A stretch of DNA of 56,183 nucleotides from Deltaproteobacteria bacterium (lineage in GTDB: Bacteria > Bdellovibrionota > JACOXK01 > 2-02-FULL-40-11): NCBI GenBank assembly GCA_016198185.1, contig JACQJD010000080.1, positions 1-56,183 on the forward strand. Direction: 5' to 3'. The position numbers and the translations under genes were made by a program. The first letter of the stretch is position 1, and the number at the start of each line of letters is the position of its first letter. Below are positions 23,399 through 48,277 of this stretch, piece by piece. A model generated the notes under the pieces. The model was not told the origin of the DNA, did not search any database, and saw nothing but the letters and a program-made list of their open reading frames with translations.

Positions 23399-23653
23399 TT
23401 AGTGTTGATGTTCAGCTGGCGTTTCTGTTCCTTCAGCTTGACCTTTAGGCTCAGCAGCTAATTTTCCGCCTTCTTTAGATGCTGTTGCGGCACTTTTACT
23501 CTCATTAAAGCGAGTCTCACAGCCGCTTTTTACTTTGCCCTTTTGTTCTTCAACACTGACACTTCTTTTTTTGGTGCTTTTTTCAACTTTGGCATACGCT
23601 GTCGTAGCTCCCAAAAAAACAATCAGCATTAGAAACATTCCTAGTTTTTTCAT
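23399..23653 (-). CDS. small secreted disordered protein, positional equivalent of Bdellovibrio Hit (Bd0108)
   Basis: AGGAGG RBS; Sec signal ending AYA; mature part K/E/S/A/G-rich with one Cys; directly downstream of the RHS gene of the Tad operon. Confidence 0.8.
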   Translation of the reverse strand: MKKLGMFLMLIVFLGATTAYAKVEKSTKKRSVSVEEQKGKVKSGCETRFNESKSAATASKEGGKLAAEPKGQAEGTETPAEHQH

Positions 23654-23705
23654 ACCTTCCTCCTTATGAACTCACACCCATCGGCGTGGTGCTATTTAAT
23701 TATAC

Positions 23706-23722
23706 TGCAATGGCCATACCAA
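23706..23722 (-). promoter_or_regulatory. sigma54 promoter
   Basis: Minus strand TTGGTATG-GCCA-TTGCA with correct spacing, about 53 nt upstream of the ATG at 23653. Confidence 0.7.
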
Positions 23723-23848
23723 AAATAGCTCGCGCTTAAAAAAATTATGTTCATTTGTAATTTCAAGTAGATAGAACTCATTCTCATCTGTTTTTAATCT
23801 TGAAAATACCTTAAAATACAGACTAATTTTTGATCAACTGTTTAAGGT

Positions 23849-25516
23849 TTAGATATTTAAATCAATCCCTGCTGGTCTAATAATATCTATCACCGTTTCA
23901 AAGGCTTGGGCCACCGCAGCCGCAATGTTTCGGCCAGAAGGACTATCCATGCCAAGCATTTCGCCCTTAGCATTATAACTCACCACCAGGCTTCCCACCC
24001 CAACTTGGGTAATGCGTGTGGGCAATCCAAATTCATTGTATTCAAATAGAAACTTTCTGCCATCTTGATCCACAATGGAACGTGTTTGACCTCTTTTATA
24101 ATAATCTACTTGAAGCGAAATTTTCAGAGTCTTATTTCTCGCAAAAACCATATTTCCATTTTTATACTTGTATTCGGTCACATCCACTTTTTTGGTTTTT
24201 GCCTCCGTTTGGGTAACTTTAGACACTTTTTGACTGCTCTTGTCATACTCCACTTCTACTTTTTTACCATTGGGAGAGGCTTTACTCTTTAAACTGCCAT
24301 CTTCATAATATTCAAAGCGAGTGATCTGGCCTTGGCGTTCGATGGAAAGGGGTTTTCCACAGCACTCGGAATTCACCGTTTCTATCCGAATGCCATCGAC
24401 AACGGTTACTGTTTTTCTGGCAAATTTAAAGCCATCTTTTCGACGGGCATATTCAAATTCATATTTTTTAACATTGATTTGGGGATTGTGTTTAGACCCT
24501 CGCTCTGTTGTCAGAGTGACCTCTAAAAACTTGTCTTCATTTCCTTTGTGATCATACCGCACCTTACGTTTCTCCTCTTTATTAGGGCCTTCATGATAGA
24601 TGACCCGATCTTTATCATCGTATTTCATGATTTCCTTTTGACCACCCGCAACATACTGAACTTCTATTAAGTGATGCTTCTTATAGGCATATTTAAATTC
24701 GAATCCATTTGAGTTTTTCGCATAAATTAAATCTTTGTCCGCACTGTATCGATATTCACACGGAGAACCTGCCGGCGGAATAATTTTAGAAACCAACCCC
24801 ATCGTATTGTACTCAAATGTAACGCGACGGCCGACCGCATCGGTCACCGACATCAGTTGCCCTTGAGGATTATATTTATAGAGAAGAAAATTTTTATTGA
24901 GATCTTCGACTTTTGTTAATTTTCCCTGAACATCATAATATTCCTTACTTCCGTCAGCATAGCTTCGAATCCAGACGATTTTGCCTTCGGTGTCTTTTAT
25001 TTTTTTAAGCACTTCTGGACCACGGGCTGTAGATGAAAGTTCTATATCGAACGGAATGTCACGAAGCAGTTTGTGCTCCCCGGCTAATTTGTGACGTAAA
25101 CTTTCATCGGTCAAAAGAGATTTTTTAAGTTTCTCAGACCGAGAAGCGGCGGGAAGCCTGTTCCAAAGATCATCCACAAATTGATCGACCGTTTGGGGTG
25201 TGAAATTTTTTGCCGTAAATATCGTTTTAAACCCTCCCCCAAAAGATGTAATTTCCACCGTTCCTTCAGGGGTGACTTTAAAATGTTGATCAAAATTTGT
25301 TCCCCATTTGTGACCAAACTTTCCAAAATAACCAGACATGGAATTAAAAGACCGCTCTAAAAGAAGCGCATATCCTTGACCTGGTATTCCAAAATCTTGA
25401 AATGCAAAGGTGATATTGCCATTCTGCGGAGTAATCTCCCCTTGCGAATAAGCATAACCCCCTGAAAACATTAATAAAAACAACACTGCCATGGTCTTAA
25501 AGGTCTTCATATCCAT
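23849..25516 (-). CDS. secreted RHS/YD-repeat protein (Bd0109-like)
   Basis: Signal peptide; RSFNS...FGHKW (DUF6531-like); many YD-type repeats (YYDVQGKL, YNPQGQL, YNEFGL); no DPxG core end or toxin tail. Confidence 0.88.
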   Translation of the reverse strand: MDMKTFKTMAVLFLLMFSGGYAYSQGEITPQNGNITFAFQDFGIPGQGYALLLERSFNSMSGYFGKFGHKWGTNFDQHFKVTPEGTVEITSFGGGFKTIFTAKNFTPQTVDQFVDDLWNRLPAASRSEKLKKSLLTDESLRHKLAGEHKLLRDIPFDIELSSTARGPEVLKKIKDTEGKIVWIRSYADGSKEYYDVQGKLTKVEDLNKNFLLYKYNPQGQLMSVTDAVGRRVTFEYNTMGLVSKIIPPAGSPCEYRYSADKDLIYAKNSNGFEFKYAYKKHHLIEVQYVAGGQKEIMKYDDKDRVIYHEGPNKEEKRKVRYDHKGNEDKFLEVTLTTERGSKHNPQINVKKYEFEYARRKDGFKFARKTVTVVDGIRIETVNSECCGKPLSIERQGQITRFEYYEDGSLKSKASPNGKKVEVEYDKSSQKVSKVTQTEAKTKKVDVTEYKYKNGNMVFARNKTLKISLQVDYYKRGQTRSIVDQDGRKFLFEYNEFGLPTRITQVGVGSLVVSYNAKGEMLGMDSPSGRNIAAAVAQAFETVIDIIRPAGIDLNI

Positions 25517-25525
25517 TCCCCCTTT

Positions 25526-26383: not shown

Positions 26384-26385
26384 CG

Positions 26386-28242
26386 TTATTCTTCCTCGCC
26401 AAAATCACTTTTTCGTCGTTTTACCGTCCACCCTTGGGGCAGACGCAATCCTTTTTGTTCAATTTCCATAACAAAATGCGGGAGATGCTCGGTCTTGATA
26501 AAATCGCCATAAACGCGACCTTGGGCATCAATCCCTTTTTGCTTAAACACAACAATATCTTTAATTTGAATATGATCTCCCTCAATGCCCATCACTTCAC
26601 TGATATGTGTAATTCTACGAGATCCATCTGAAAAGCGCGCAATTTGAACAATTAAATTCACAGCCGATGCAATCTGTTCACGAATGGCTCGAGAAGGAAG
26701 ATCCATCCCCGCCATCATGACCAACGTTTCCAATCGCGAGAGACAATCTCTGGGGTTATTGGCATGCACCGTCGTTAAAGATCCATCGTGGCCTGTGTTC
26801 ATGGCTTGCAACATGTCTAACGCTGCGCCATCTCGACACTCTCCCACCACAATACGATCGGGGCGCATCCGAAGGGTATTTCTCACCAAATCTCGAATCG
26901 TAATGGCCCCTTTGCCTTCGATATTGGGCGGCCGACTTTCCAATCGACACACATGCGGCTGCGTTAAACGCAATTCAGCAGAATCTTCGACGGTAATAAT
27001 GCGATCAGAAGCAGGAATAAAAGAAGAAAGCACATTGAGCAGGGTTGTTTTTCCGGTGCCCGTCCCCCCCGAAACCACAATATTTTGACGTGATTCAGTT
27101 GCCGCTCTTAAAAAATCTGCGATTTCATCTGTTAAAGATCCAAATCGAATGAGATCTTGAATCGAAAAGGGTGTCTTTGAAAATTTACGAATGGTTAACA
27201 CAGGTCCGGTCAAAGAAAGCGGTGGAATAATGGCGTGCACCCGAGAGCCATCCGGAAGCCTGGCATCACAATAAGGCGTCTTTTCATCAATCCGTCTTCC
27301 CAAAGGCGCAACAATTCTTTCGATAATTCCCAAGAGCTGTTCATCACTTGTAAAATTGAGGGGCACCAATTGAATCTTTCCATTTTTTTCAATGTAGATC
27401 TGGTCTTTGCGATTAACCATAATTTCTGTGACGGCAGGATCTGCAAGCAACTTTTCCAAAGCCCCCAAACCCAGCGCTTCATCTAAAATATCTTGCACAA
27501 ATAACCTGGCAGCCGTGCGATCTGCGATTGCAATATTTTCACGTTGCATAATGGCTAAGATCGCTTGTTTGGTGCGTTGTCTTAAAAGAGCTATTTTTTT
27601 TGGGTCATTCCCAGTTTCGGTATCAAGCTTTTTAAGGTTTAATTCTTCAACCAATTGATCTAAAATTTTTCTTTTTAATTTAACTTGGGGATCTTTCCCA
27701 ACCACCTCCGGCTTTACCACACGAGGTTGAATGGAACTGTAGGTTGGGCCTTCCGTTCCTGTTGCCTGAAGAATTTCATTTTGAGCAATCTCTACAATGT
27801 GTTTGGACAACAAAACGTCTTTTAACTTCATCACATATTTGGCCGGTAAGCTTTGGGGGTAGCTGGCAATCAAGGTCACGTGTTCTTGCTCAGCTTGAGC
27901 CACCAAGGCATGCTGCGGGATTGCCCCTAAAATATTACATGCCAGTTGTGCCTTTATCCGATGGGGGTCCATTTTTTGTGCCACATCGTATTCATTAAAC
28001 ACCACAAAAATTCGGTCTCTGCGAATTTTAGAAGAAAGCTCGTCAATGAGCGTTCTCGTTTGGACCAAACTTTTTTCATCGGTCGGGGTTGTCACCAACA
28101 GTGCCGAGGCCAGTGGTAATTTCTGAATCTCTTCGCTGACTTGAACTGGAACACGTTCCAAATCAAATGCCGCTTGTAAATTTTTAGCCAACATCGTTTT
28201 CCCACTTTTGGCAATCCCTGCAATGACTAAAAGAGATTTCAT
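26386..28242 (-). CDS. tadA: Tad ATPase TadA/CpaF with N-terminal CpaE/MinD-like remnant
   Basis: GGTGTGKTT, EDSAEL, LRMRPDRIVVGECR, MNTGHDG; extra N-terminal region with AGIAKSGKT. Confidence 0.96.
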   Translation of the reverse strand: MKSLLVIAGIAKSGKTMLAKNLQAAFDLERVPVQVSEEIQKLPLASALLVTTPTDEKSLVQTRTLIDELSSKIRRDRIFVVFNEYDVAQKMDPHRIKAQLACNILGAIPQHALVAQAEQEHVTLIASYPQSLPAKYVMKLKDVLLSKHIVEIAQNEILQATGTEGPTYSSIQPRVVKPEVVGKDPQVKLKRKILDQLVEELNLKKLDTETGNDPKKIALLRQRTKQAILAIMQRENIAIADRTAARLFVQDILDEALGLGALEKLLADPAVTEIMVNRKDQIYIEKNGKIQLVPLNFTSDEQLLGIIERIVAPLGRRIDEKTPYCDARLPDGSRVHAIIPPLSLTGPVLTIRKFSKTPFSIQDLIRFGSLTDEIADFLRAATESRQNIVVSGGTGTGKTTLLNVLSSFIPASDRIITVEDSAELRLTQPHVCRLESRPPNIEGKGAITIRDLVRNTLRMRPDRIVVGECRDGAALDMLQAMNTGHDGSLTTVHANNPRDCLSRLETLVMMAGMDLPSRAIREQIASAVNLIVQIARFSDGSRRITHISEVMGIEGDHIQIKDIVVFKQKGIDAQGRVYGDFIKTEHLPHFVMEIEQKGLRLPQGWTVKRRKSDFGEEE

Positions 28243-29753: not shown

Positions 29754-29754
29754 C

Positions 29755-30606: not shown

Positions 30607-30618
30607 GATTTTCCCCCT

Positions 30619-30957
30619 TTAATTGCATGTGACCGTCCGACAAATGCCGATGATCGTCTCAATCGGCCTTTCATCTTCGGCATCCCCTGCATTGAGAAAT
30701 GGAATGCCCGATGTGCGAACCCGAGGTGATGTTCCCAAGGCTCGCTGTTTATTCCCCAAAGAAGGCATATTGACGTTGTGATCGAGTGTTTGTGTTAAAA
30801 ACCGATCCCGAACATTTTCTTGTGTGGTAATGGCGGCCTGAATACACTCAAAAACATATAAATTAAAAAGAATGAGAAAAATAAAAAAGGGCACCAAAAT
30901 AATAAATTCAATCATGGCCTGTCCTTTATTCGTCGGTATCACTTTTTTCTTATTCAT
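30619..30957 (-). CDS. TadE-like pseudopilin
   Basis: KG|QAMIEF prepilin site plus hydrophobic helix; start reassigned to the ATG at 30957. Confidence 0.8.
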   Translation of the reverse strand: MNKKKVIPTNKGQAMIEFIILVPFFIFLILFNLYVFECIQAAITTQENVRDRFLTQTLDHNVNMPSLGNKQRALGTSPRVRTSGIPFLNAGDAEDERPIETIIGICRTVTCN

Positions 30958-31408
30958 TGTCCAACACCCCTTCTGATTGACTTCGAACTTCCGCGGGTCC
31001 CGGCTCACGGGTGAATGGGGAGGCAACCGTCAATGTTTGTAAGGGATTTCCAAGCGTCCCCAATAAAGGAATGTAACTGAGCACCTGATACGTTAATTCA
31101 ATGCGTTCTCCCGCAGCATCTCGAATGACGTGTTGTCCTGGAATCGTCAGCGGCGATGCCAAAAATCCCAACCGATTGTTTTGGGGGGAACCCACAAGCT
31201 CTGACAAATATAGAGAACTATTTCCCGAAACAGACTCTGACCTTGCTGTCATAAAACCTGCATACCGCATGACATGAGAAGCAACGTACGTCAGGGACAA
31301 CTGAACATGAGCCAAAATCAAAAATAAAAGCAGGACAAAAATGAACAAGAACTCTGTTAAGGATTGTCCTTTTTTATTTTTAAGATATGGTTGACACAAC
31401 ACGTTCAT
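30950..31408 (-). CDS. TadE-like pseudopilin
   Basis: KG|QSLTEF prepilin site, TM helix, YAGFMTAR (AAR-like motif). Confidence 0.85.
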   Translation of the reverse strand: MNVLCQPYLKNKKGQSLTEFLFIFVLLLFLILAHVQLSLTYVASHVMRYAGFMTARSESVSGNSSLYLSELVGSPQNNRLGFLASPLTIPGQHVIRDAAGERIELTYQVLSYIPLLGTLGNPLQTLTVASPFTREPGPAEVRSQSEGVLDNE

Positions 31409-31414
31409 TTTTTG

Positions 31415-31588
31415 TTACCGAAACTCGCGCCCCGTGTTCAGTTGACGTTCGATGACATCCGCTTTCAGACGCGGGGCTGCCTGTTGAAAAATATCTACAA
31501 AAAAAAGACTGAGTCGCCACGCGATCATCACCACAAACGTCACAAGCAACATATACTCAACGATGGTCTGACCGCTGTGCGCTTTCAT
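31415..31588 (-). CDS. Flp-like minor pilin
   Basis: SG|QTIVEY Flp motif; start reassigned to the ATG at 31588. Confidence 0.8.
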   Translation of the reverse strand: MKAHSGQTIVEYMLLVTFVVMIAWRLSLFFVDIFQQAAPRLKADVIERQLNTGREFR

Positions 31589-31601
31589 GGATAAACGTGG
31601 A

Positions 31602-31784
31602 TTAGCCACCGCCCCCCATGGAACTAATTGCATTTCGAATTTTGTCCGTCACTTGCCCCACCAATCCTTGAAATTGAGGCTGAAACAATTTGAACAAAAT
31701 CATGACAATCCCCACCACAAATACAATCATGAGAATGTATTCCAGTGTATTTTGTCCTTTATGATTTCGAAGTAACTGTCGCAT
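31602..31784 (-). CDS. flp: Flp pilin
   Basis: 60 aa; KG|QNTLEY plus hydrophobic helix; strong AAGGAGG RBS; first gene of the operon. Confidence 0.9.
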   Translation of the reverse strand: MRQLLRNHKGQNTLEYILMIVFVVGIVMILFKLFQPQFQGLVGQVTDKIRNAISSMGGGG

Positions 31785-31838
31785 GTTTCCTCCTTATAGG
31801 AAATGGATGTACGTTGGGTACACCCTCGTTCTGTTTTC

Positions 31839-31866
31839 TTTTCGGTAAAAATACGACAAAGCTTAA
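31839..31866 (-). promoter_or_regulatory. sigma28 (FliA)-like promoter of the flp operon
   Basis: Minus strand TTAAG-N15-ACCGAAAA about 55 nt upstream of flp. Confidence 0.6.
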
Positions 31867-32100
31867 ATAAGGTTATCTCCACGCACGTTCCACCTTACTT
31901 TTATTATAACCAAGGTCAGAAAGACCACAAGGTAGGGCTATAAACCCCTCTATGGACTTGCACATTAAAATTTCATTAAATTTTGGCGAAGATTTGACAT
32001 CTTTGCCTTTATTTGTATAAAATTTTGGTAATTCTTATATGTCGAAAATAGGGTTCGGCGTTTCTACAAGTCACCTTAAATGACTTACTAAGGAGGAGAT

Positions 32101-32592
32101 ATGCAAAATAGGGTCGTCGTTGCTATCGTAAAGGCGTGTTTTGTTATTGCCTTTTCTTTAACGGTCACGCTGGCTTTCTCATACCCCTTGATCCCTGATC
32201 CAGAAATCACCCAGGGAGATCTTTGCACAGAAGATAACCCTGATTTTGCAAAGTATCGGTATCAAGAAAACATCCCTTATTGTCAACGTAACGTCAGCAA
32301 AGCCAGACGAGAAAAAATCTATGAAAAATACAATATCCCCTCCCATTGCAGATATCTGTATACGATAGATCATTTTATTCCACTCTCTATTGGCGGTAGC
32401 AATGCGGATCAGAATCTTTGGCCAGAACATGTTTTGGTAAAAGCCACACGGCCAAAGTTAGAAGAGGAGATTTACCTAGCACTGGCACAGGGAGAATTAA
32501 ACCAACAAGAAGCAATCGATATTATTATCAAAGAGAAAACCACAGAGCAACAAAGCCCCCCGGATAATAACAGCAAAGGTGAATGTAACTAA
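32101..32592 (+). CDS. secreted HNH-family nuclease-like protein
   Basis: Signal peptide; IDHFIPLSIGGSN...NLWP HNH motif; AAGGAGG RBS. Confidence 0.85.
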   Translation: MQNRVVVAIVKACFVIAFSLTVTLAFSYPLIPDPEITQGDLCTEDNPDFAKYRYQENIPYCQRNVSKARREKIYEKYNIPSHCRYLYTIDHFIPLSIGGSNADQNLWPEHVLVKATRPKLEEEIYLALAQGELNQQEAIDIIIKEKTTEQQSPPDNNSKGECN

Positions 32593-32610
32593 CAGGGATC
32601 GCTTAAGCAT

Positions 32611-32722
32611 GTCACCCCGAATGCTGGTGAGGGGTTTCATCGATGTATCCCAGAGTATAGTTGATGAGACATTCCGAGCGCCCCCGGCCTTTGCCGGGAC
32701 AGGCTCCGGGCAAGGAATTTTC
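32611..32722. repeat. REP-like repeat remnants with a nested GC-rich hairpin
   Basis: GTCACCCCGA.. and GACATTCCGAGCG...CAAGGAAT resemble the GTCATTCTGAG..GAAT repeats; insert CCCGGCCTTTGCCGGG. Confidence 0.5.
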
Positions 32723-32777
32723 ACCGCTTATTAGATTGAAAGAGAAAGTTATTTCTTCAACGGAAACAGCGATATTT

Positions 32778-33092
32778 CTAAGCTGCTTTTTTCTCTGGAG
32801 TAACATTAAGTGCCAGTTGATAACCTAGGGCCTTAAGAATTTTATAAATGGTATCAAACGTTGGAGCTCTCCTTTGATCACCTTTCTCAAGGCGAGCAAT
32901 GAGAGGTTGTTTGACCTGAGCTCGTTTGGCAAGCTCAAGTTGAGACAATCCAGATCTTGCTCGAAGATCAGAAATTAAATGAGCCGCTTGAAGATAAAAT
33001 TTTTGCTCATCAAATAGTATTTTTAAGGATTTATCTCTTTTAAGTTGTCTTGCGATAATCGTTTCTAATGAAACACTTTTTATTTTTTTCAT
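32778..33092 (-). CDS. HigA-like XRE HTH antitoxin
   Basis: LRARSGLSQLELAKRAQVKQPLIARLEKG HTH_3; 4-nt overlap with the upstream toxin. Confidence 0.9.
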   Translation of the reverse strand: MKKIKSVSLETIIARQLKRDKSLKILFDEQKFYLQAAHLISDLRARSGLSQLELAKRAQVKQPLIARLEKGDQRRAPTFDTIYKILKALGYQLALNVTPEKKAA

Positions 33093-33427
33093 GAAAGGAC
33101 CTCCTTGAGTCGTTTTCTAGCCACATCTAACTCATGTTTAGGGGCTTTTTGCCCCTGTTTCTTATACGAATGTAAAACATGCAGGTGATCAGAAGAAAGC
33201 ATTACATAGAAAAATCGCCATCCTCCTCCTCGCGTTCTTATTTTTATCTCCCAGAGCTTTCCTTCAATAGGTCTAAACTGACATCCCATGGCATTCAAAC
33301 CATACTTTTTAATATCCTCAAAAACAGCCAAGATGTGAGCTTTATCTTCCCTGCTCAAATCCTTTAAAAAGTCCTCAAAATAATTCCTACCTGAATGCGA
33401 ACTTTGAAATGTAATTTTCACTGCCAT
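33089..33427 (-). CDS. RelE/HigB (Gp49-like) toxin
   Basis: KLWEIKIR...WRFFY...LHSYKKQGQKAPKHELDVA; toxin-first gene order; start may be the GTG at 33421. Confidence 0.9.
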   Translation of the reverse strand: MAVKITFQSSHSGRNYFEDFLKDLSREDKAHILAVFEDIKKYGLNAMGCQFRPIEGKLWEIKIRTRGGGWRFFYVMLSSDHLHVLHSYKKQGQKAPKHELDVARKRLKEVLS

Positions 33428-33428
33428 C

Positions 33429-33457
33429 AGAATATAACCACATGGTTATATTGTCAA
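33429..33457 (-). promoter_or_regulatory. sigma70 promoter with overlapping palindromic operator of the TA operon
   Basis: TTGACA-17-TATTCT; perfect palindrome AATATAACCA-CA-TGGTTATATT at 33431-33452 fills the spacer. Confidence 0.8.
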
Positions 33458-33512
33458 GGAATTTTTCAGGGAGATTGTCATTTTAACAAAAGAGTTATAT
33501 AAAGCCTCGTCC

Positions 33513-34511
33513 ATGATTAATAAAATAATTTTTATTATTTTCTTATTATTTTCCATTGGGTCTTATGCCGAAAATAGAGACATTGGTTTTAAAATTGAAA
33601 TAGATACCGAGAAAATCTTACGATTCAAAGATAAAACGGTTCCCAAAATTCTGGAAATTCTAAGCCAAGAAGGCATTAAAATAATTCGTGTTGATAAAAT
33701 GCAAAGTGCCGATCCACAATATACCACGATTCCTGATCTTTATGAGGATTCTCAAAAAGAATGGTATGAAGCTCAATTATTGGAAGAGCCACATGCAGTA
33801 GGTGTTTATTATGCAATTCAAGATCATGAGAATACCGGATTAAATCCGCCTTATAACGATTTGCCGACCATTGCGCTTTTAAAAAATGCGACATTGTATA
33901 CAATTCTTCATGAATATTTACACCACCTGATCACGTTATTTCAGACTCATGGCAGAGGATATCTTTGGCTCGGAGACCAAAAAAAATCTTATGGAACAAT
34001 TGTGCGTGAAACTTTTGAAATCCCTTATTTAAATGCAAAAGGGGATTACCAATATTTATTGCAGAAAAGTGCTAGTATAAAATCAGAAATCATAGACAAT
34101 TTTTATCGAAAATATCTTTCTCTGGGCGTTCAACATATTAAATATACTTACTTTAAAGGATTAGATCATCTTATCATTCCAAAGTTTCTCTACGAACATG
34201 CGGAAGTTTTTGGCGATCAGCTCAATAAAAAAGAAATCTTAGAAGATCTTATCCGGACCTTAGATGAGATTGCTGATGAAGAGAATAAATCTTTAAAAGA
34301 GATGATCGATTATGTTCAGAAAACAGGTCGAGAAAATTTAAAAAATGATGAATTTCTGGGAGTATTTTTTGGTGAACAGGATCCCATTTTGACCTTTATC
34401 GAAAATTCAGAAACTGCCCAAGAGTATAAACGAATTCATGATTGGACAGTTTCAACTGCGCAAAAGGACTTTCCTGAATTAATTGAATCCTCCGAAAAAA
34501 ATAAAGAATAG
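33513..34511 (+). CDS. secreted hypothetical protein with HExxH zinc-metallopeptidase motif
   Basis: Signal peptide (SYA|EN); TILHEYLHH; AT-rich coding sequence. Confidence 0.7.
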   Translation: MINKIIFIIFLLFSIGSYAENRDIGFKIEIDTEKILRFKDKTVPKILEILSQEGIKIIRVDKMQSADPQYTTIPDLYEDSQKEWYEAQLLEEPHAVGVYYAIQDHENTGLNPPYNDLPTIALLKNATLYTILHEYLHHLITLFQTHGRGYLWLGDQKKSYGTIVRETFEIPYLNAKGDYQYLLQKSASIKSEIIDNFYRKYLSLGVQHIKYTYFKGLDHLIIPKFLYEHAEVFGDQLNKKEILEDLIRTLDEIADEENKSLKEMIDYVQKTGRENLKNDEFLGVFFGEQDPILTFIENSETAQEYKRIHDWTVSTAQKDFPELIESSEKNKE

Positions 34512-34555
34512 AACTTAAAACATCTTAAAAGCGATGGGATTCCTGTATAAGGTTT

Positions 34556-35047: not shown

Positions 35048-35050
35048 CCA

Positions 35051-36518: not shown

Positions 36519-37843
36519 AAATTCATAACGCGATTTAATCCCCATGAAATGAATAGAAAAAAAATAGCCACCCAAAAAATGCTATAGGAACTTGATTGCC
36601 TTTTGATCGAAGTCCAAGGATGCATGCTGGGTGAGGGATCTTGGGCTTTGGAATCTGGTTTGAGCCATGGAATGGCACGGCTCGCAAATTCAAGCGCCAT
36701 CATCGCCGGACCAAATTTAAATAGTTTAAATCCTTCATATCGATCGGTCAGGTCATCGGCCAAGTGAGACAAACGATAGGGGATAGCCCCAACGCCCTGA
36801 CCCTGTATATCGATACCCGTATAATCACTCCAATAATTTAATTCCCACTGTGCTTCAATTCTTTCAGCATGGAGCACGCCCAATGGTTGCCAATTATCGA
36901 TGAAATCATTCTGACGATAATTCGCTCCCGTACTTCTTCCGATGAAAGATACACCCACATCATTGAAAACAATTCGGTTACGCTCAATGAACGCAGGTCG
37001 AATATCCTCTGAAAGAGCACCCATTGGAGAATTATCAAAATAAATGCCCACACGATTGCGAAACAATTCATTGTGATTCATTTTAAACTCATTCGAGTCT
37101 TTCAACGCGATCCCAAAACCACTTGGCCCACGATTATTTAAAACCGTATTTCCGAGAATGCTTAACTTGTGACTGTACATGGCATAAATGCCAACAGAAT
37201 TATTTTCGATGATATTCTCCTGGGCTGAGGATTCATCTGAATACATAAAATGAATTCCATATCGACTGCTCTTCATTTGATTCTGATTGAGAGTGGCGTG
37301 TGGAGAATACCAGACAATGACATCTCTGCCTCTAAAAAATTCATTGCGAACCAATTGTAAAGAAGAACTATACCAAGCCTTGAGAAGATCCCCTCGCTGC
37401 GCCAATGCCAAATCGTAACCAGAAATTTTACAATCTTCAATCTGACTGAAAGGACTATTGAGAAGTTCTATGCCAAAAAGACAATTTTCCACCTTGCTGT
37501 TTCGCAGTTCAAAATGAGCACCGTCTTCTACTTTAATACAACTATCCTCAGCCCCTAAAGTGACACCCGAATTTCGAATGGTGATTCCTGAAATATGCAC
37601 CTGCGGAGCTCGTACTTCCAGAACAGTTCCCCGCAGCTTCCCATCTAAAATCACATCATTCTTTGCAATCAGTGTTAAAGGTTTTTGAATTAAAAAATTT
37701 CCAACGTAAGTGCCGGAAGGAATGAGAACCGTTTCACCCGCTTTGGCATGGTTAATGAGCTCCTGGAAAACAGCTGGTGTCTTACTCTCAACCTCAAAGG
37801 ATAAAAAAATTAAAAGAAGCCCACCGAAACAAACACCTCTCAT
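36515..37843 (-). CDS. nosD: N2O reductase maturation protein NosD
   Basis: CASH beta-helix; RYGIHFMYS, NYWSDYTG.D motifs. Confidence 0.95.
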   Translation of the reverse strand: MRGVCFGGLLLIFLSFEVESKTPAVFQELINHAKAGETVLIPSGTYVGNFLIQKPLTLIAKNDVILDGKLRGTVLEVRAPQVHISGITIRNSGVTLGAEDSCIKVEDGAHFELRNSKVENCLFGIELLNSPFSQIEDCKISGYDLALAQRGDLLKAWYSSSLQLVRNEFFRGRDVIVWYSPHATLNQNQMKSSRYGIHFMYSDESSAQENIIENNSVGIYAMYSHKLSILGNTVLNNRGPSGFGIALKDSNEFKMNHNELFRNRVGIYFDNSPMGALSEDIRPAFIERNRIVFNDVGVSFIGRSTGANYRQNDFIDNWQPLGVLHAERIEAQWELNYWSDYTGIDIQGQGVGAIPYRLSHLADDLTDRYEGFKLFKFGPAMMALEFASRAIPWLKPDSKAQDPSPSMHPWTSIKRQSSSYSIFWVAIFFLFISWGLNRVMNL

Positions 37844-38427
37844 GTGGAAGCCTGTGTCAGAAGCTTCTTTTTGATGTTAATGGCCAGCATGTAAATGCCT
37901 GTCGCAAGAAATCCCAACCAAAATCCCACTCCAAACATAGCTTGCGTATGAAATTGACCAATTTTTCCAGCCCCCAACAACCGAGGCATAAACGGTTTAA
38001 TATGCACCGGCGCTTCTGGACTTAAATAATGCCCAAAATAATACATCCAAAAAGTAAAATCACCGATAAATCCAATCAAAAAAAGAATGGGTGGTAAATA
38101 AAAGATAAAATAAATTTTTTTCGAAAAACTTAAAACAATTAAACCTCCTAAAATTAAAAGCCCAACAGCCAGCGCAGCAACTTTCCTTTCCCATTGAGCT
38201 GCATTTTGTAATTTCTCCATCCCAATATAATGATTGAGTAAGTTGACTTCATCGACATCCCCTTCCACATGATCCAAATAAACTTTCATGTGAAGGCCCA
38301 TTGGATATTGCGGAGCTTTGAGATGCATCACCCAATATGGAAAGAAATAGGATCCCGCCAAGATCAATGAAGCCAGAAAGAGCAGAGCATAAAAGGATGG
38401 ATAAGATTTCAACATTTGAAACGTCAT
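37840..38427 (-). CDS. nosB: clade II nos membrane protein NosB
   Basis: APQYPMGL, NLLNHYIGM, YYFGH.L motifs; four TMs; directly after nosZ. Confidence 0.85.
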   Translation of the reverse strand: MTFQMLKSYPSFYALLFLASLILAGSYFFPYWVMHLKAPQYPMGLHMKVYLDHVEGDVDEVNLLNHYIGMEKLQNAAQWERKVAALAVGLLILGGLIVLSFSKKIYFIFYLPPILFLIGFIGDFTFWMYYFGHYLSPEAPVHIKPFMPRLLGAGKIGQFHTQAMFGVGFWLGFLATGIYMLAINIKKKLLTQAST

Positions 38428-38430
38428 CCC

Positions 38431-40374
38431 TTATTGAACCACCAAATAGCCTGTCATTTCCAAATGAAGCGCCGAACAAAATTCTGTACAATAATATGGG
38501 AAAACACCGGATTGATCGGCTTTAAACTCAACCGTTTCCACTTTTCCGGGTTCCAAAGAAACATTGATATTGTACCGACTGATGGCAAAGCCATGTGTTG
38601 CATCCAGAGCGCGCTCAATACTACTTAAGTGTATTCTCACCAAATCTCCTTTTTTAACGTTAATAAGGTCTGGCGTCAGATGACTTCGAATGGTGGTCAT
38701 ATAAACATCAACCGTATTCCCCTTACGAACAATGCGTTCTTTACCGGCCAAAGTTGCAACGGGACTGGGTTTCATTGTTTCAGCACTCATCCCCAGTGGA
38801 TAAACACTCCACGGTTTTAAACGCTCTGCTTTTACAATTTGAGCGTAATGAGGCTCTGCGTTCGGAATGGGCATATCATATAAAACCTGCATTTTTTCTG
38901 AACCGGTTGTAGAAACAAGCTGAAAGTTTTGAGGCAACAACGGACCCACATTCGGAAAACGATCAATGGCCCATTTGTTTAATGAAACACAATAGCCTTC
39001 ACCTGGCTCGGCTGTATCCCCCTCAACACAAGAAAGGTGCCCGATATTATAATGCACCGAAACTTTATCCAAAAGTTTCCATGCTGCGTTGCCCTTGTGA
39101 TAAGGCTCTCCCAATGACCACTTTGCAATGGCTGAGTCTAAAAATAGACTGGTATAGGCATAGCCTTGTTTATCAAATTGCGTATGCAGCGGCCCTAACC
39201 CCACTTCAATCTGAGCCGCCAAAACAGAATCAAATTTTAAAATGGGAACACCATATTCATCTTTCCCTTGAACCAAGTTCTGAGCTATCGCGTTCTTTAA
39301 TTTATTGAATTCAAATACAGTCACATGAGGGTCTAATTTTCCAGATACAACAATATAATTGCCATCTGGCGAAACATCCACACCATGCGGACTTTTAGGT
39401 TCATGGATAAAATAAAGTAATTTTTCTTGGATGGCTTGTTTAAGTGTAATGAGCTTCATCCCTGCTGTTTTTTGAGTCCCTGCGGACTTGGCCACTTTTT
39501 CTGCTTTTTTCCAATCAATCACATGTAAAAAATCCATATCATTGCGTGAAACGGCCATTTCCAATTGAGGTTTCTGATTCATATTATCTGGAGAGGCTAA
39601 CTCCGTGTTGATCGAATTGATAAACAGATACCCATCACTGACTTTTTTTCCAAGATCCACAATATCTTGCCAATACGGAGGCAGCTCTATTGAAAAACTT
39701 TGTGATAGATTGATTTTTCCTTGTGCGCGATCAAATTTCCAAAAGGTCACAACCCCACGATATTTTTTTTTATAGTCCGTCATCGGGGCATAGCGTGCCC
39801 CCAGTGGCACATTATATTGTGAAGTTTCAATAATATATTCCGTGTTGGGGGTCACAAATGTCCCGCCATGATCATTGACAAATAAAGGATTTTGAAGAAT
39901 TTGCTTGGTCGAAAAATCACGTAGGTCAATGACCGCAACACGCGCATTGGCCTTATCATTCACAAATAAAAATTGACCGTCATAGACACCATTGGTTTCA
40001 GAGAGTGCAGGGTGGTGAAGATCTCCCCACCTGAGCGCTTTACCGCCACCATCTAATATACGTTTGGAATCCAGAGAACCCGTTCCCCAGCCTTGCCAGG
40101 AGTCTGGTGAAAAAACAGGAATCGTTTTAATCAGACGCATAGAAGGAAGACCAATCACCAGAACACTGCCGGCATGTCCCCCCGATGCAAACATGAGGTA
40201 TGGGTCATGTTTCCCAGAGGGCGTATAGGTCATCAGCGCTGCGCGCATATCCGAAGCGGTCAACCCTCTTTTTTTAGCAATGTCCTCTAAAACAGAGGCC
40301 TGACTTTGTGTGGCAATGCATAAAAGCACCAGATATCCACTTAAAATAAATCTGATTCTACTGAGGATCATCAT
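38431..40374 (-). CDS. nosZ: Sec-dependent (clade II) nitrous-oxide reductase
   Basis: SGGH, DLHH, SPHG, GPLHTQF, GH, EPH CuZ ligands; CuA YCTEFCSALHLEM; Sec-type leader without twin-Arg consensus. Confidence 0.97.
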   Translation of the reverse strand: MMILSRIRFILSGYLVLLCIATQSQASVLEDIAKKRGLTASDMRAALMTYTPSGKHDPYLMFASGGHAGSVLVIGLPSMRLIKTIPVFSPDSWQGWGTGSLDSKRILDGGGKALRWGDLHHPALSETNGVYDGQFLFVNDKANARVAVIDLRDFSTKQILQNPLFVNDHGGTFVTPNTEYIIETSQYNVPLGARYAPMTDYKKKYRGVVTFWKFDRAQGKINLSQSFSIELPPYWQDIVDLGKKVSDGYLFINSINTELASPDNMNQKPQLEMAVSRNDMDFLHVIDWKKAEKVAKSAGTQKTAGMKLITLKQAIQEKLLYFIHEPKSPHGVDVSPDGNYIVVSGKLDPHVTVFEFNKLKNAIAQNLVQGKDEYGVPILKFDSVLAAQIEVGLGPLHTQFDKQGYAYTSLFLDSAIAKWSLGEPYHKGNAAWKLLDKVSVHYNIGHLSCVEGDTAEPGEGYCVSLNKWAIDRFPNVGPLLPQNFQLVSTTGSEKMQVLYDMPIPNAEPHYAQIVKAERLKPWSVYPLGMSAETMKPSPVATLAGKERIVRKGNTVDVYMTTIRSHLTPDLINVKKGDLVRIHLSSIERALDATHGFAISRYNINVSLEPGKVETVEFKADQSGVFPYYCTEFCSALHLEMTGYLVVQ

Positions 40375-40805
40375 TTTTTCTTCTCCTTTTTTAAAGATTC
40401 TTTTGATGTTTCATCGATATAAGATAGAACTTTCCCAATTTCATCATCTGAAAGGGCTAAGTTGGGCATTTTCGTAAAAAACTTTCCAAGCATTTCCATC
40501 GCAATAGGATCTTTCTTGGCAAAGGCCGCATCCGGGTCTTTCAACCAACTCAACAACCATGATTTACTTCGACGCTCAAGAACGCCTTTAAGATCTGGTC
40601 CCGATAAAGTTCCTTGTCCAATGGTGTGACAAGCATTACAGCCCTTGGCCTGGAAAATTTTTTTCCCTGCTTCTATGTCTGCGGCGCTCCTTTTGGTGGA
40701 TTTTTCATCGGCTTTGACAAGGCCCACACCCGCCAAGCTAAAAAACACCACGAGAATCCAAACAGAGCATAAACTGAAACTACATTTTTTGCGTCGTGTC
40801 ATCAC
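40371..40805 (-). CDS. monoheme cytochrome c (probable NosZ electron donor)
   Basis: Signal peptide, CNACH, GPDL, distal MP; overlaps the nosZ start. Confidence 0.93.
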   Translation of the reverse strand: MMTRRKKCSFSLCSVWILVVFFSLAGVGLVKADEKSTKRSAADIEAGKKIFQAKGCNACHTIGQGTLSGPDLKGVLERRSKSWLLSWLKDPDAAFAKKDPIAMEMLGKFFTKMPNLALSDDEIGKVLSYIDETSKESLKKEKKK

Positions 40806-40826
40806 TACTCCTTTTTTCTCAAAAAA

Positions 40827-41279
40827 TTACGATTTGCATTCATAACAACAAGATTTCATCTTCCAAAAACCAGGTTTAAACTGTAAAGTGGTCAGCATCG
40901 TCACCGTAAAAATAAAAATTCCCACAAGTTGTAACAAACCTGAAATGACAAATAAGGTCGTCCAAAAGGTATTTTCCATGGGCTGATAAAAGCGAATGAT
41001 GGGAAACAGCATCATTCCCACCAATCCCACATTTGATGCCCACCAATTGAAACCTTGCCAAAAGTCCGAAATCAGTGAATGAGCGCAAAATCTTGGGATC
41101 ACATGATAGCCCAAACCAAAAATCATCATGGTAACCCACCCAATCATCATGATATGAATGTGCGAAAAACGCAGGATTCCAACACTCTTTGGATACACAG
41201 CCATACACAGCCCCACCCCTGCTCCCAACAAGAGATATAAAAGCGCTGAAATGGTAAACCATCTAGAATATTTACTCAT
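40827..41279 (-). CDS. 4-TM protein resembling a heme-copper oxidase subunit I fragment
   Basis: HIH....GW...IFG..Y..IPRF pattern; C-terminal CCYEC; first gene of the nos operon. Confidence 0.75.
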   Translation of the reverse strand: MSKYSRWFTISALLYLLLGAGVGLCMAVYPKSVGILRFSHIHIMMIGWVTMMIFGLGYHVIPRFCAHSLISDFWQGFNWWASNVGLVGMMLFPIIRFYQPMENTFWTTLFVISGLLQLVGIFIFTVTMLTTLQFKPGFWKMKSCCYECKS

Positions 41280-41332
41280 TTTCTGCTTTCATTTTCATAT
41301 TGTCAGTCAACATAAAATATTTTACTATAATT

Positions 41333-41352
41333 AATAGATGAATATATCTATT
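41333..41352. promoter_or_regulatory. candidate Rrf2 operator
   Basis: Palindrome AATAGAT-GAATAT-ATCTATT in the divergent nos/rrf2 spacer. Confidence 0.55.
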
Positions 41353-41399
41353 GATAAAAATACAATGAGAGAAGTTTGAAAGTCAATGAATAATTTTTT

Positions 41400-41837
41400 A
41401 TGTTAACCTTAACCTTAAGCCAAACCAATGAATATGCCTTACGGGCAATGTCTTATTTGGCTCATGCCGGTGGAAAGATACCGCTCACGGCCACGAAAAT
41501 TTCACGTGAGACAAAGATTCCCCAACATTATTTATCAAAAATAATGAAACTCATGGTCAATGCGAAGTTGGTGCATTCTCAAAAAGGGCATCGAGGAGGA
41601 TTCGTACTTGCAAAACCACGAACGAAAATTCGTTTTTTCGATATCATTGTTGCCACGGGATATAATCCCAACCCCAATCGATGTGTTTTTGGATGGGCGA
41701 CTTGTAATCCCAAACTCCCTTGTATGCTGCATCACGCTTGGAGCGAGCTCAATACAACTTTTAAAACATGGGCTTTGGAAAAAACGTTGAATGACATTTA
41801 TCCAGAAAATAAAACAGCAAGACAGGTTAAGTCATAA
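41400..41837 (+). CDS. Rrf2-family Fe-S transcriptional regulator
   Basis: EYALRAM, YLSKI, S.KG..GGF.L wHTH; C-x6-C-x5-C-x2-H cluster motif. Confidence 0.93.
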   Translation: MLTLTLSQTNEYALRAMSYLAHAGGKIPLTATKISRETKIPQHYLSKIMKLMVNAKLVHSQKGHRGGFVLAKPRTKIRFFDIIVATGYNPNPNRCVFGWATCNPKLPCMLHHAWSELNTTFKTWALEKTLNDIYPENKTARQVKS

Positions 41838-46980: not shown

Positions 46981-47338
46981 TTCGTAATTGGGTTGCGACT
47001 TTCAATTTCCAAAAATCGATGGTTCCGGCCGGCCATTCAATGGCAGATCGTGCTTTAAAATGAGGCCACGTCATACGATAGGGCTGTAACGCAGGATACA
47101 ACGCAACAATGATATTCTTGCTATCCATAAAGGCGACGTCAATCGGGTATTTCATAAAAAAGGTATCAATCATGAAACACCCCGGAGAAAGAATTAAAGC
47201 TTCCTGGGAACGCAAGGGAGGTTTTCCCAAAAGACCAAATATTCTCTCCCAAAGACTTTCGGTCCCTGTTGCTTGCGATGAAATGCACTGATCCCCGTAA
47301 AAAATGGAATAGCCTGTCTTACAAGAAACCGCCACCAA
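46961..47338 (-). CDS. DUF192-family protein
   Basis: ERIFGLLG, IDTFFMKYPIDVAFMD, EWPAG. Confidence 0.88.
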   Translation of the reverse strand: MVAVSCKTGYSIFYGDQCISSQATGTESLWERIFGLLGKPPLRSQEALILSPGCFMIDTFFMKYPIDVAFMDSKNIIVALYPALQPYRMTWPHFKARSAIEWPAGTIDFWKLKVATQLRIEEKHG

Positions 47339-48230
47339 TGTTAATGCCTCCTTTTAAAAATTGAACAATCAGTTTGGCAAGAATTGGCCCCAGAACCACA
47401 ATGAAAACAGCTGGTACAATAAACAAAATGGTCGGTAGCAATATTTTTTGGGATGCTTTGGCGCCAGCTTTTTCAGCTGCAATAAACCGTTCCACCCTAA
47501 TTTGATCGGATTGTTGTTTTAAAACAGTGCTGATATTAGCACCCATCTGATCTGCGGTCACCAGCACCGCCACCAAAGAGGAAATTTCAGACATGCTCAG
47601 ACGATCGGCCATATTTCTAAGTGCTTGAGCACGGGTATTGCCAACTTGAAGTTCCTTGAGAACTTGTTGCAATTCTTCAATTAAAGGGCTGGGCATTGCT
47701 TTTTGGACCACACGCTGAAGTGCTTTCATAAAGTCTAATCCCGCTTCGGTACAAAGACTCATGAGATCAATCACAAAGGGAATGGCCAAACGAATGTGAC
47801 GCTCACGATTTTTAATGATGTTTTGAATCCATAGATTTGGAAAAAGCCATCCCAGCGACGAAAAGATCAAAAGGATCCAAAGGGGATGGGTCAGTTTCAA
47901 AGTCAAATTATACGCCAATGCTGCTAACGGTAATAAGAAGGTTAGAAAAATTTTAAGCCCCAAAAATTCATCTGCTGTTAAGCTATCGGAAAGACCCGCC
48001 TGAACCAGAAGTTTCTTTTTATGTTTTCGAAAAGCATCTATTTTTAGGTTGCCAATGGAAGGCAGTAAATAAATTCGTATGATGGGGAGCGTCAGACGCA
48101 AAACCAAAGATTCAGAAATAACAGCCGTTTTAGCTTGGGTAGGGAGATTTGCTCCTTTTCCCATCCTAAAAAATTGATACGAAATGATAAATACGCTCAA
48201 TCCTATTAAAATACTTGCCAAAATAAGCAT
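47319..48230 (-). CDS. tadC: Tad pilus platform protein TadC
   Basis: IDLMSLCTEAGLDF..AL, AEKAGAKASQKILLP; start reassigned to the ATG at 48230 behind GAGGA. Confidence 0.93.
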   Translation of the reverse strand: MLILASILIGLSVFIISYQFFRMGKGANLPTQAKTAVISESLVLRLTLPIIRIYLLPSIGNLKIDAFRKHKKKLLVQAGLSDSLTADEFLGLKIFLTFLLPLAALAYNLTLKLTHPLWILLIFSSLGWLFPNLWIQNIIKNRERHIRLAIPFVIDLMSLCTEAGLDFMKALQRVVQKAMPSPLIEELQQVLKELQVGNTRAQALRNMADRLSMSEISSLVAVLVTADQMGANISTVLKQQSDQIRVERFIAAEKAGAKASQKILLPTILFIVPAVFIVVLGPILAKLIVQFLKGGINIGGGFL

Positions 48231-48249
48231 ACGGATATCCTCATGTTCC

Positions 48250-48277
48250 CTATCGGCATAAAAGATCAATAAGATGA
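48250..48277 (-). promoter_or_regulatory. sigma28 (FliA)-like promoter of the tadC-FHA operon
   Basis: Minus strand TCATC-N15-GCCGATAG; near-consensus -10, weak -35. Confidence 0.55.

Follow-up and report, generated by a model that had tools for sequence, protein, structure and literature searches.

Do two operons lying almost 10 kb apart in the genome of an uncultured member of the Bdellovibrionota encode one pilus machine, and is it the counterpart of the machine with which Bdellovibrio bacteriovorus attaches to and invades its prey? The question is raised by a stretch of 56,183 nucleotides (positions 1-56,183 of contig JACQJD010000080.1, assembly GCA_016198185.1), called here the window, with a GC content of ~0.38-0.44. 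The window is contig C37 of a metagenome-assembled genome (MAG; G000) comprising 93 contigs and 1.77 Mb, with a completeness of 92.3% and a full size of ~1.9 Mb. The original prediction held that two complementary operons, a Tad operon and a TadC-FHA operon, encode a divergent prey-contact machine of a possibly uncultured organism and are perhaps close to an ancestral single locus; the genome is indeed that of an uncultured Bdellovibrionota bacterium. With a probability of roughly 0.8, the two operons together encode one Tad (type IVc) pilus machine that spans the cell envelope and belongs to the Bdellovibrionota ('Kil-like') type.

Both operons lie on the minus strand, and the genes inside each of them overlap or sit 1-10 nt apart; Pfam and motif searches recovered all genes that had been listed, at the same coordinates and in the same orientation (Table 1). 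The pilus operon (31784 to 23399) encodes four prepilins, CpaB, a secretin, a TadZ-TadA fusion ATPase (TadZA), TadB, a YD-repeat (RHS) protein and the product of a small secreted open reading frame (ORF), p84, and the tadC operon (48269 to 41798) has the order tadC-DUF192-3xFHA-PP2C. Pfam matches over the cut-off were obtained for the ATPase, TadB, TadC, the RcpA secretin and RcpC/CpaB, and in a PDB sequence search the C-terminal part of TadZA matched Caulobacter CpaF at E=1e-120. Flp prepilins are processed at the motif G/XXXXEY, and all four small ORFs at the head of the pilus operon carry a G/Q-x-x-x-E-[YF] prepilin motif ahead of a hydrophobic helix. Prepilin 1 is 64% identical to its copy in a sister genome (G005), the position of prepilin 2 is conserved in 4/4 family loci, and the 135-aa TadF-like pseudopilin, which had no match in the Pfam scan, has syntenic copies in relatives. 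The proteins described as membrane FHA proteins proved to be such: a hydropathy scan predicts, after the leading FHA domain of each, one or two transmembrane (TM) segments (141-159 and 306-324 in the 508-aa protein, which also has a weak Pfam match to PAS; 140-158 in the 328-aa protein; 298-316 in the 646-aa protein). The signature residues of FHA domains are GR, SxxH and NG; they are kept in three of the four domains, those of the 508-aa and 328-aa proteins and the second domain of the 646-aa protein, the first domain of the latter being without the NG motif.

The operons complement each other as proposed, each holding a single T2SSF gene (tadB in one, tadC in the other), and sister genomes carry both as one block. 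The tadC-tadB arrangement was judged on 40 relatives and 80 named loci; surroundings of both genes were taken from 16 relatives, and the window proteins were mapped onto these regions. To obtain the named loci, a TadC alignment was searched against named genome records, and 580 of the 599 stretches found encode relatives. The best 80 of these were used, all from uncultured-genome records, labelled mostly as Bdellovibrionota, Bdellovibrionales, Oligoflexia, Bacteriovoracaceae, Pseudobdellovibrionaceae or 'Deltaproteobacteria bacterium', with a few generic or mislabelled; the nearest TadC relatives among them were groundwater-type MAGs (59-63% identity). A genome search found eight further small genomes (1.2-2.2 Mb) of the window's family, the class of which includes only one other family among the 40 sampled genomes. 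In the four family genomes with tadC and tadB on one contig (L018-L021), the synteny check that had been suggested gave the same answer each time, a contiguous locus: divergent MeaB, then TadC-DUF192-FHA-FHA-FHA-PP2C-Flp-Flp-TadE-pilin-CpaB-RcpA-TadZA-TadB-RHS, and further on XseA. One of the four, L020, is contiguous with no match for PP2C or the second Flp. The flanks of the window (MeaB, 48320-49243; XseA, 21687-23012; Lon, 19285-21690) are those of the sisters wherever the sister locus reaches them.

The same contiguous order was found in families f3, f9, f14 and f15, and family f11 has it with extra genes, its two same-strand parts being separated by 17-22 kb. The window's family and several others inherit the machine as a contiguous 16-gene block. 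Among the named loci, 41 were informative, reaching at least 10.5 kb past the tadC start; a same-strand CpaB or RcpA gene follows tadC in 17 of them and not in the other 24, which would include interrupted cases like the window. DUF192 and an FHA gene are found after tadC in 66 and 69, respectively, of the 70 named loci that extend 2.5 kb or more downstream, and the PP2C of the window could be detected in 17/47 named loci. On one MAG contig (L101:254-10643), tadC is divergent from DUF192-FHA-FHA-FHA-PP2C-TadE-CpaB, owing to a local inversion or misassembly.

The genome as a whole also points to one machine, because it holds a sole Tad-type ATPase and a sole non-T2SS secretin. Two T2SSE ATPases over the cut-off (TadA of the window and a GspE) and two secretins (one in the window, one in the T2SS) were identified in G000, and the T2SS (GspC-D-E-F-G-H-I-J-K) is the only other type IV filament system of the assembly. 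T2SSF domains occur in GspF, in the two window genes and in a divergent short pair on contig C70, and it is this pair that could suggest two separate machines, each operon having its partner tadC or tadB elsewhere. A second tadB/tadC pair had been named in the original prediction as a sign of separate machines. Contig C70 (G000:C70:1-3649, L041) begins inside a 350-aa gene (T2SSF, 23 bits), which is followed by a 177-aa gene (31.7 bits), an uncharacterised gene and a convergent Ser/Thr kinase gene with a PEGA domain; in a relative, G002 (L042:2777-14027), the pair ends a row made up of a TadE-like gene, a TPR/PEGA protein gene and genes of three large proteins with no family match. A short T2SSF-like gene recurs in 7/8 family relatives. 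Against separate machines stand the shortness and weak scores of the pair and the lack of a recognisable ATPase or secretin at the G002 locus. Above all, the single block of the sisters contradicts them, and because both operons form one block there, the C70 pair supplies no second TadB/TadC to the window operons. We therefore regard two machines as highly improbable; the C70-type locus may represent a far-diverged system resembling type IV filaments, or else the kinase partner of the FHA module.

If the two operons form one unit, what separates them in the window? The spacing of about 10 kb reported originally is real (31785-41797), although it is a secondary foreign insertion and not a relic of fusion or fission. 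Sister loci L018, L019 and L021 keep the same flanks with a PP2C-Flp spacer of ~170-200 bp and no island, so that the 9.8-kb gap can be read as foreign DNA inserted into this short spacer. The island carries what looks like a complete nos cluster with a Sec-type clade II nosZ. Since NosZ was found in 1/41 genomes searched, that of the window, and in 0/40 relatives, the island is an apparent recent horizontal gain. Contigs from four groundwater runs bridge both island junctions without differences and with even depth (~21 in X1); all four runs belong to one study, and one of them may be the source sample. At the island flanks, no convincing direct repeats and no tRNA were found. Pfam searches at E up to 1 with the uncharacterised genes of the island and of the second T2SSF locus gave only weak NosL (E=0.085) and HNH (E=0.03) matches. 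The gain of N2O reduction that this island would bring to a member of a predatory phylum is apparent, and is weightier for ecology than for the mechanism of the machine.

Judging from the sequence, the insertion leaves both transcription units intact. The island sits upstream of a promoter-like site of flp, as the flp upstream region aligns with the G005 spacer: the TATAAT box and the subsequent AGGTGGAACGTG are common to the window and the sister. The TTGTGG-16 nt-TATAAT element is a putative flp promoter; generic promoter and terminator scans were at chance level (found/expected 18/17.3, 13/9.9, 17/16.6 and 4/5.9). Within the ~110-nt leader from the promoter-like site to the flp start, a GC-containing 8-bp hairpin was noted (31805-31825, minus strand).

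Table 1. Genes and other features of the two operons and of the island between them (bits, Pfam unless stated; slash, prepilin processing site)
Feature	Coordinates	Strand	Evidence or remark
tadC, inner membrane platform protein, 316 aa, ~4 TM segments	47319-48269	-	T2SSF 64.8 bits
DUF192 protein, 125 aa	46961-47338	-	DUF192 41 bits; 20-nt overlap with tadC
FHA - TM - ~145-aa periplasmic loop - TM - PAS protein, 508 aa	45454-46980	-	FHA 71.9 bits, Yop-YscD_cpl 53 bits
FHA - TM - TPR protein, 328 aa	44477-45463	-	FHA 74 bits
2xFHA - TM - TPR protein, 646 aa	42540-44480	-	FHA 101 bits in 2 stretches, TPR_14
PP2C-like Ser/Thr phosphatase, possibly impaired, 249 aa	41798-42547	-	PP2C_2 36.3 bits, cut-off 24
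Lineage-specific insertion, ~9.8 kb	31785-41797		Absent from sister spacers
Rrf2 regulator	41400-41837	+	Island gene
Small membrane protein	40827-41279		Island gene
Cytochrome c	40371-40805		Island gene
Sec-type clade II NosZ	38431-40374		TIGR04246 816.9 bits, cut-off 625
4-TM protein	37840-38427		Island gene
NosD	36515-37843		Island gene
NosF	35859-36575		Island gene
NosY	35051-35920		Island gene
Weak NosL-like ORF	34556-35047		Pfam E=0.085
Secreted uncharacterised protein, 332 aa	33513-34511	+	Island gene
RelE/Gp49-HTH toxin-antitoxin pair	32778-33427		At one island end
Secreted uncharacterised protein, 163 aa	32101-32592	+	Island gene
Promoter-like TTGTGG-16 nt-TATAAT upstream of flp	31903-31930	-	Alignment with G005 spacer; TATAAT at 31903-31908
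Flp-type major prepilin 1, 60 aa	31602-31784	-	HKG/QNTLEY; Flp1_like E=4e-5, under cut-off
Flp-type prepilin 2, 72-aa ORF, probable start Met16	31415-31633	-	HSG/QTIVEY
TadE-like minor pilin, 152 aa	30950-31408	-	KKG/QSLTEF; TadE 20.5 bits, cut-off 22.9
Second minor (TadF-like) pseudopilin, 135-aa ORF	30619-31026	-	NKG/QAMIEF and TM segment
CpaB/RcpC, 283 aa	29755-30606	-	RcpC 81 bits, SAF 44 bits
RcpA/CpaC secretin, 503 aa	28242-29753	-	Secretin 87 bits, T2SS-T3SS_pil_N 33.5 bits
TadZ-TadA fusion ATPase, 618 aa	26386-28242	-	T2SSE 226 bits
tadB, 285 aa	25526-26383	-	T2SSF 66 bits
Secreted YD-repeat (RHS-type) protein, 555 aa	23849-25516	-	RHS_repeat and DUF6531, 68 bits
p84, small secreted low-complexity protein, 84 aa	23399-23653	-	Positional counterpart of hit/Bd0108

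Far from being divergent, as had been claimed, the machine belongs to a phylum-wide set of orthologues: TadC orthologues (E<=1e-35) were found in 398/401 sampled phylum genomes and in 335/336 high-quality ones. In four genomes, tadC and tadB are far apart on a single long contig, at 341 kb (G034) and, if the chromosome is circular, ~395 kb (G019) in family f10, 530 kb in G025 and 0.75-1.9 Mb in G032. The TadC tree comprised 56 rows and was rooted on five TadB paralogues, L045 and L058 being omitted as duplicates of included genomes. The contiguous families f11 and f3 branch first, followed by an unresolved set including the window's family, two clades with all loci dispersed (10 and 14 rows, the larger one including G135) and one mostly contiguous clade (24 rows), and at least six state changes are needed; the tree is only suggestive, given its very long outgroup branch and SH-aLRT values of 81 and 90 at the basal nodes. 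Canonical Tad loci are single loci. Because of this and of the tree, the single block is probably the ancestral state in the Bdellovibrionota, and the original idea of an ancestral single locus is supported beyond what had been claimed for it, as sister genomes still keep such a locus.

For the comparison with B. bacteriovorus, we used a genome (G135) in which the primer Bd0109-RTF for reverse transcription PCR, as printed in PMC3818213, matches exactly at 97,647-97,666, inside the RHS orthologue; because of this match, G135 is taken as HD100-like. Its first locus (~97-104 kb) reads CpaB-RcpA-TadZA-TadB-RHS (550 aa)-101-aa ORF, and a second one at 440 kb, 341 kb from the first, reads TadC-DUF192-FHA-FHA-FHA-PP2C-like, so that the split described for B. 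bacteriovorus was recovered with matching gene orders. Protein identities between the window and G135 are 48% for TadZA, 40% for TadC (40-41% to the gene of the tadC locus), 39% for RcpA, 37% for TadB, 36% for DUF192, 35% for CpaB and 30% for RHS, the PP2C-like protein being barely recognisable (23%, E=8e-4). Judged by this similarity and gene order, both window operons are syntenic orthologues of the B. bacteriovorus tad locus 1/hit locus and tadC locus. The likeness covers gene content and order inside each half, the fusion of TadZ with TadA, the position of tadC away from tadB and before DUF192, three FHA genes and a PP2C-like gene, the YD-repeat gene and small secreted ORF after tadB, and the absence of TadV from the locus. 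The differences are several. First, G135 has 341 kb between the halves and the window 9.8 kb, and in the window's family they are contiguous. Second, the TadZ module of the window is shortened and degenerate. Third, neither tadA2/rcpA2 paralogues nor PilT or type IVa pilus (T4aP) genes were found in G000. Finally, protein identities are as low as 23-48%, and the window's genome is about half the size.

According to the accessible part of a 2026 preprint (10.64898/2026.07.08.737194), depletion of B. bacteriovorus rcpA, tadZA-tadB or tadG blocks prolonged attachment and invasion; by orthology, the likely role here is prolonged prey attachment and entry or feeding. A different possibility is an ordinary adhesion or surface-sensing Tad pilus of a free-living or host-attached non-predator, with the FHA and PP2C proteins serving general envelope signalling. 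Tad pili are described as mostly adhesive (PMC12428579, in part), TadC occurs in nearly all genomes of the phylum regardless of lifestyle, and the ATPase domain is very near to Caulobacter CpaF; this reading is nonetheless unlikely, given that the locus is syntenic, gene by gene, with the B. bacteriovorus system, depletion of which prevents prey invasion according to the same preprint text, and given the shared extra features, namely the TadZA fusion, tadC beside DUF192/FHA, the Bd0109-like RHS gene and the hit-like ORF. To our knowledge, the TadZA fusion, displaced tadC, Bd0109-like RHS gene and hit-like ORF are not found in adhesion Tad loci.

Other contact-dependent and pilus systems bear a more partial resemblance. 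The Bdellovibrionales systems have been called 'Kil-like' (PMC8460266 and PMC12075869), with an enrichment in FHA proteins noted in the consulted sections of PMC8460266, the tree of which groups them with the Kil system. The link with the Kil system of Myxococcus xanthus (MXAN_3102-3108, MXAN_4648-4661) that had been drawn originally agrees with its description in PMC8460266, again in the sections consulted: the system is Tad-derived and has many FHA proteins and a single ATPase. In contrast to the window ATPase, with its TadZ-like N-terminus and no FHA domain, KilF has an N-terminal FHA domain in that description; the published account further indicates that tadB and tadC homologues are kept together in Kil, the genes being split otherwise, and that Kil has its own prepilin peptidase, KilA. 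With canonical Tad/Cpa loci (Caulobacter CpaA-F, Aggregatibacter flp-tad), the window shares Flp pilins with the G/XXXXEY motif, TadE/F-like pseudopilins, CpaB/RcpC, the secretin, a CpaF-type ATPase (E=1e-120) and TadB with TadC; it differs in the position of tadC, which stands at the head of the locus beside DUF192/FHA/PP2C, and in the fusion of TadZ with TadA; TadV, TadD, RcpB and TadG are lacking in the locus, and YD-repeat and hit-like genes are appended. The PpkA-PppA-Fha1/TagH module of the type VI secretion system (T6SS), as outlined in part of PMC8460266, offers an analogy only: FHA scaffolds and a PP2C are encoded with a contact-activated envelope machine, and the 328-aa FHA protein matches the TagH model weakly (50 bits, under the cut-off). 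Unlike the T6SS, the window locus is without a kinase, its FHA proteins are membrane-anchored with periplasmic TPR parts, and its PP2C motifs are partly degenerate.

The RHS gene follows tadB in 15/16 loci, and its product is 30% identical over the full length to the 550-aa G135 gene product in which the Bd0109 primer site lies. In family f11, no RHS gene was found beside tadB (L028:1-3426, G020). In G020, a PilT-family ATPase gene (G020:C4:66628-67662, 468.8 bits) lies ~2 kb past tadB on the opposite strand, on the usual RHS side. In the confident AlphaFold2 model of the RHS protein (pLDDT 87.3, pTM 0.81), residues 159-524 form a spiral of YD hairpins; its other parts are a signal peptide, a small beta domain, a helical insert and a single C-terminal helix. 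Foldseek relates the model to Rhs cores, teneurins and Tc BC components (E down to 8e-23, query TM 0.2-0.5). As modelled, the protein makes up roughly half a cocoon and lacks a toxin domain. The RHS_repeat and DUF6531 matches, and T6SS Rhs effectors and Tc toxins as best structural matches, could suggest that the pilus delivers the protein to prey as a polymorphic toxin, yet we consider this very improbable. Polymorphic Rhs toxins have a closed YD cocoon and, after an autoproteolysis motif, a C-terminal toxin domain. The protein here is just 555 aa long, one helix is all that comes after the YD spiral in the model, the query TM scores correspond to about half a cocoon, and both ends of the protein are conserved across the phylum, unlike the variable tips of Rhs effector toxins. 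Moreover, according to the accessible text of PMC3818213, the B. bacteriovorus counterpart, Bd0109, resides in the periplasm, seems to be essential and binds Bd0108.

The ORF following the RHS gene, p84, is somewhat favoured as the counterpart of hit (Bd0108). All 13 loci examined have, after the RHS gene, an ORF of 67-124 aa on the same strand; these hit-position ORFs have, by eye, a signal-peptide-like hydrophobic start and a polar low-complexity chain, usually with a cysteine mid-way, and p84-type ORFs of the window's family share MKKLG... and an E-x-T-G-x(4-5)-C motif. Bd0108 has 101 aa (PMC3818213, in the text available), and 67-aa hit-like genes after the hit-locus core have been reported in the consulted part of PMC3526173 for B. 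marinus SJ; hit-like genes in this position were also observed in G019. A complex of the RHS protein and mature p84 was predicted with an ipSAE of 0.60 (runs 0.63, 0.60 and 0.58; best control 0.01), where the mark is reached by 58/80 solved complexes and 2/110 mismatched pairs, and only 7/80 solved complexes, plus both mismatches, pass at ipSAE <=0.60. At least 19% of contacts agree between the runs, with a partner pLDDT of at least 36. The prediction lends weak support to the hit role; the pairing was likely beforehand, because an interaction of Bd0108 with Bd0109 has been shown experimentally (PMC3818213, as far as its available text goes).

The ATPase deserves separate mention. The N-terminal 235 aa of TadZA (27538-28242) align with the ParA/MinD module of the orthologues. 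The window reads GIAKSGKT in this region, and other families, G135 included, read GGKGGVGKS, with Pfam CbiA/ParA over the cut-off in the four orthologues scanned (42-53 bits for the best model) versus 19.8 bits in the window (cut-off 25.4) and 30.6 bits in G005. The module has 235-281 aa in the window's family compared to 323-347 aa elsewhere, being ~60-110 residues shorter, and loss of the ParA/MinD signature lysine motif is limited to the window's family. A PDB sequence search with the TadZ-like N-terminus gave no match (best E=1).

Taking family knowledge together with the work on B. bacteriovorus and M. xanthus, we infer the following sequence of events. The two Flp prepilins and two TadE/F-like minor pilins would be cut by a PilD/GspO-type peptidase encoded elsewhere; the TadZ-TadA ATPase would polymerise and retract the pilins on a TadB and TadC platform, and CpaB with the RcpA secretin would form the exit path of the fibre. 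Piliation could be tuned, in the periplasm or at the surface, by the YD-repeat protein and the small disordered secreted protein. The three bitopic or polytopic FHA proteins, with their periplasmic TPR or sensor parts, together with DUF192 and the PP2C-like protein, might form a phospho-threonine-dependent scaffold or switch through which assembly responds to a signal from the envelope or from contact; the gene of the Ser/Thr kinase would lie elsewhere.

The rest of the genome was searched for the missing parts. The prepilin peptidase search suggested by the original prediction succeeded for the relatives and failed for the window's own genome: Peptidase_A24 is present in 20/20 relatives, each of the eight family members having one copy of 258-267 aa, and was not found in G000. 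Because the peptidase and adjacent ORFs of the two relatives checked all lack a counterpart in G000, where the neighbours give only 30-42% paralogue-level matches, an assembly gap is likely. A short TadV-like peptidase copy is also present in six genomes of other families, and in at least three of them such a gene (171-192 aa) lies within or beside the Tad locus, at G018:C29:8755-9060, G019:C1:180857-181168 and G009:C10:96180-96491; some families keep it there, unlike the window's family or, as far as the accessible part of preprint 10.64898/2026.07.08.737194 goes, B. bacteriovorus, in which PilD processes Flp1. PilT over the family cut-off was found in 7/21 genomes, the larger-genome families all having 1-3 copies; all nine genomes of the window's family (one with 100% completeness), the three of f2, G012 (f3) and G016 (f7) gave no match over the cut-off. 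The PilT-less genomes are all of 1.2-2.2 Mb, and retraction of type IVa pili seems to be missing from these small-genome lineages.

Several observations weigh against the reading of the two operons as a Kil-like predation pilus. First, a role in predation is suggested for this organism by orthology only, and the 'Kil-like' placement comes from literature on the Bdellovibrionales as a whole. Second, RomR-based polar targeting, as in B. bacteriovorus, may not extend to this case because the TadZ module is shortened and degenerate in the window's family. Third, p84 has no sequence similarity to the 101-aa ORF of G135 (BLASTP E=4.6). Fourth, the peptidase is missing from an assembly of 92.3% completeness, and both C70 and relatives contain another T2SSF-like pair, very divergent and accompanied by a TadE-like gene and a Ser/Thr kinase gene. 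Fifth, no kinase gene was found inside or beside the locus, the three Hanks kinases lying elsewhere on contigs C91, C70 and C63. Finally, the PP2C-like protein (NCBIfam Stp1_PP2C 105.7 bits, under the cut-off of 230) is without one acidic motif residue, and the name 'phosphatase' may be nominal. PP2C motifs are usually written DGxGG and SDG; the protein keeps DGLGG, and the SDG position reads SSG in the window and all four aligned family members and TDG in certain other lineages; in G135, where the gene may encode a pseudo-phosphatase, it can no longer be recognised. The PP2C-like gene that closes the tadC operon has degenerate metal-binding motifs in several lineages, most strongly in G135 (L128:10139-10609).

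The displaced tadC, the TadZA fusion, the FHA/TPR/PAS neighbours of the separate tadC locus and the lack of TadV are already known for B. bacteriovorus from the accessible text of preprint 10.64898/2026.07.08.737194. New are the inheritance of the two halves as one heritable block in many lineages, the origin of the window's gap by nos-island insertion, and a small-genome family with a trimmed TadZ module in which no PilT was found. In the literature searched, no paper on the contiguous locus was found; Tad, FHA and hit terms were absent, by a term search, from the main text of a comparative-genomics paper on Bdellovibrionota (PMC11656739), and a literature search for DUF192 together with Tad gave nothing on predators. 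More tentatively, and with the chances somewhat against it, the 16-gene block (tadC-DUF192-3xFHA-PP2C-pilins-cpaB-rcpA-tadZA-tadB-RHS-hit) could be the ancestral complete prey-contact module, in which the FHA-TM-TPR proteins, DUF192, PP2C, the YD-repeat protein and the hit-like peptide would be true subunits or regulators; the scattering in B. bacteriovorus would then be derived, and the sole pilus of PilT-less small-genome lineages would be a minimal predation apparatus.

The scattered loci of B. bacteriovorus leave it undecided whether the FHA/TPR/PAS proteins, DUF192, the PP2C-like protein, Bd0109 and Bd0108 are members of the machine. Inheritance as a block, seen in 17/41 named loci and 4/4 family genomes, provides comparative evidence that the genes of the block work together, and yields a short list of genes to deplete in a culturable model. 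With ~1.9 Mb, a T2SS, a Tad system and no PilT found, the window's family represents a natural minimal case, which bears on the old question of which of the two pili, T4aP or Tad, acts where in predation.

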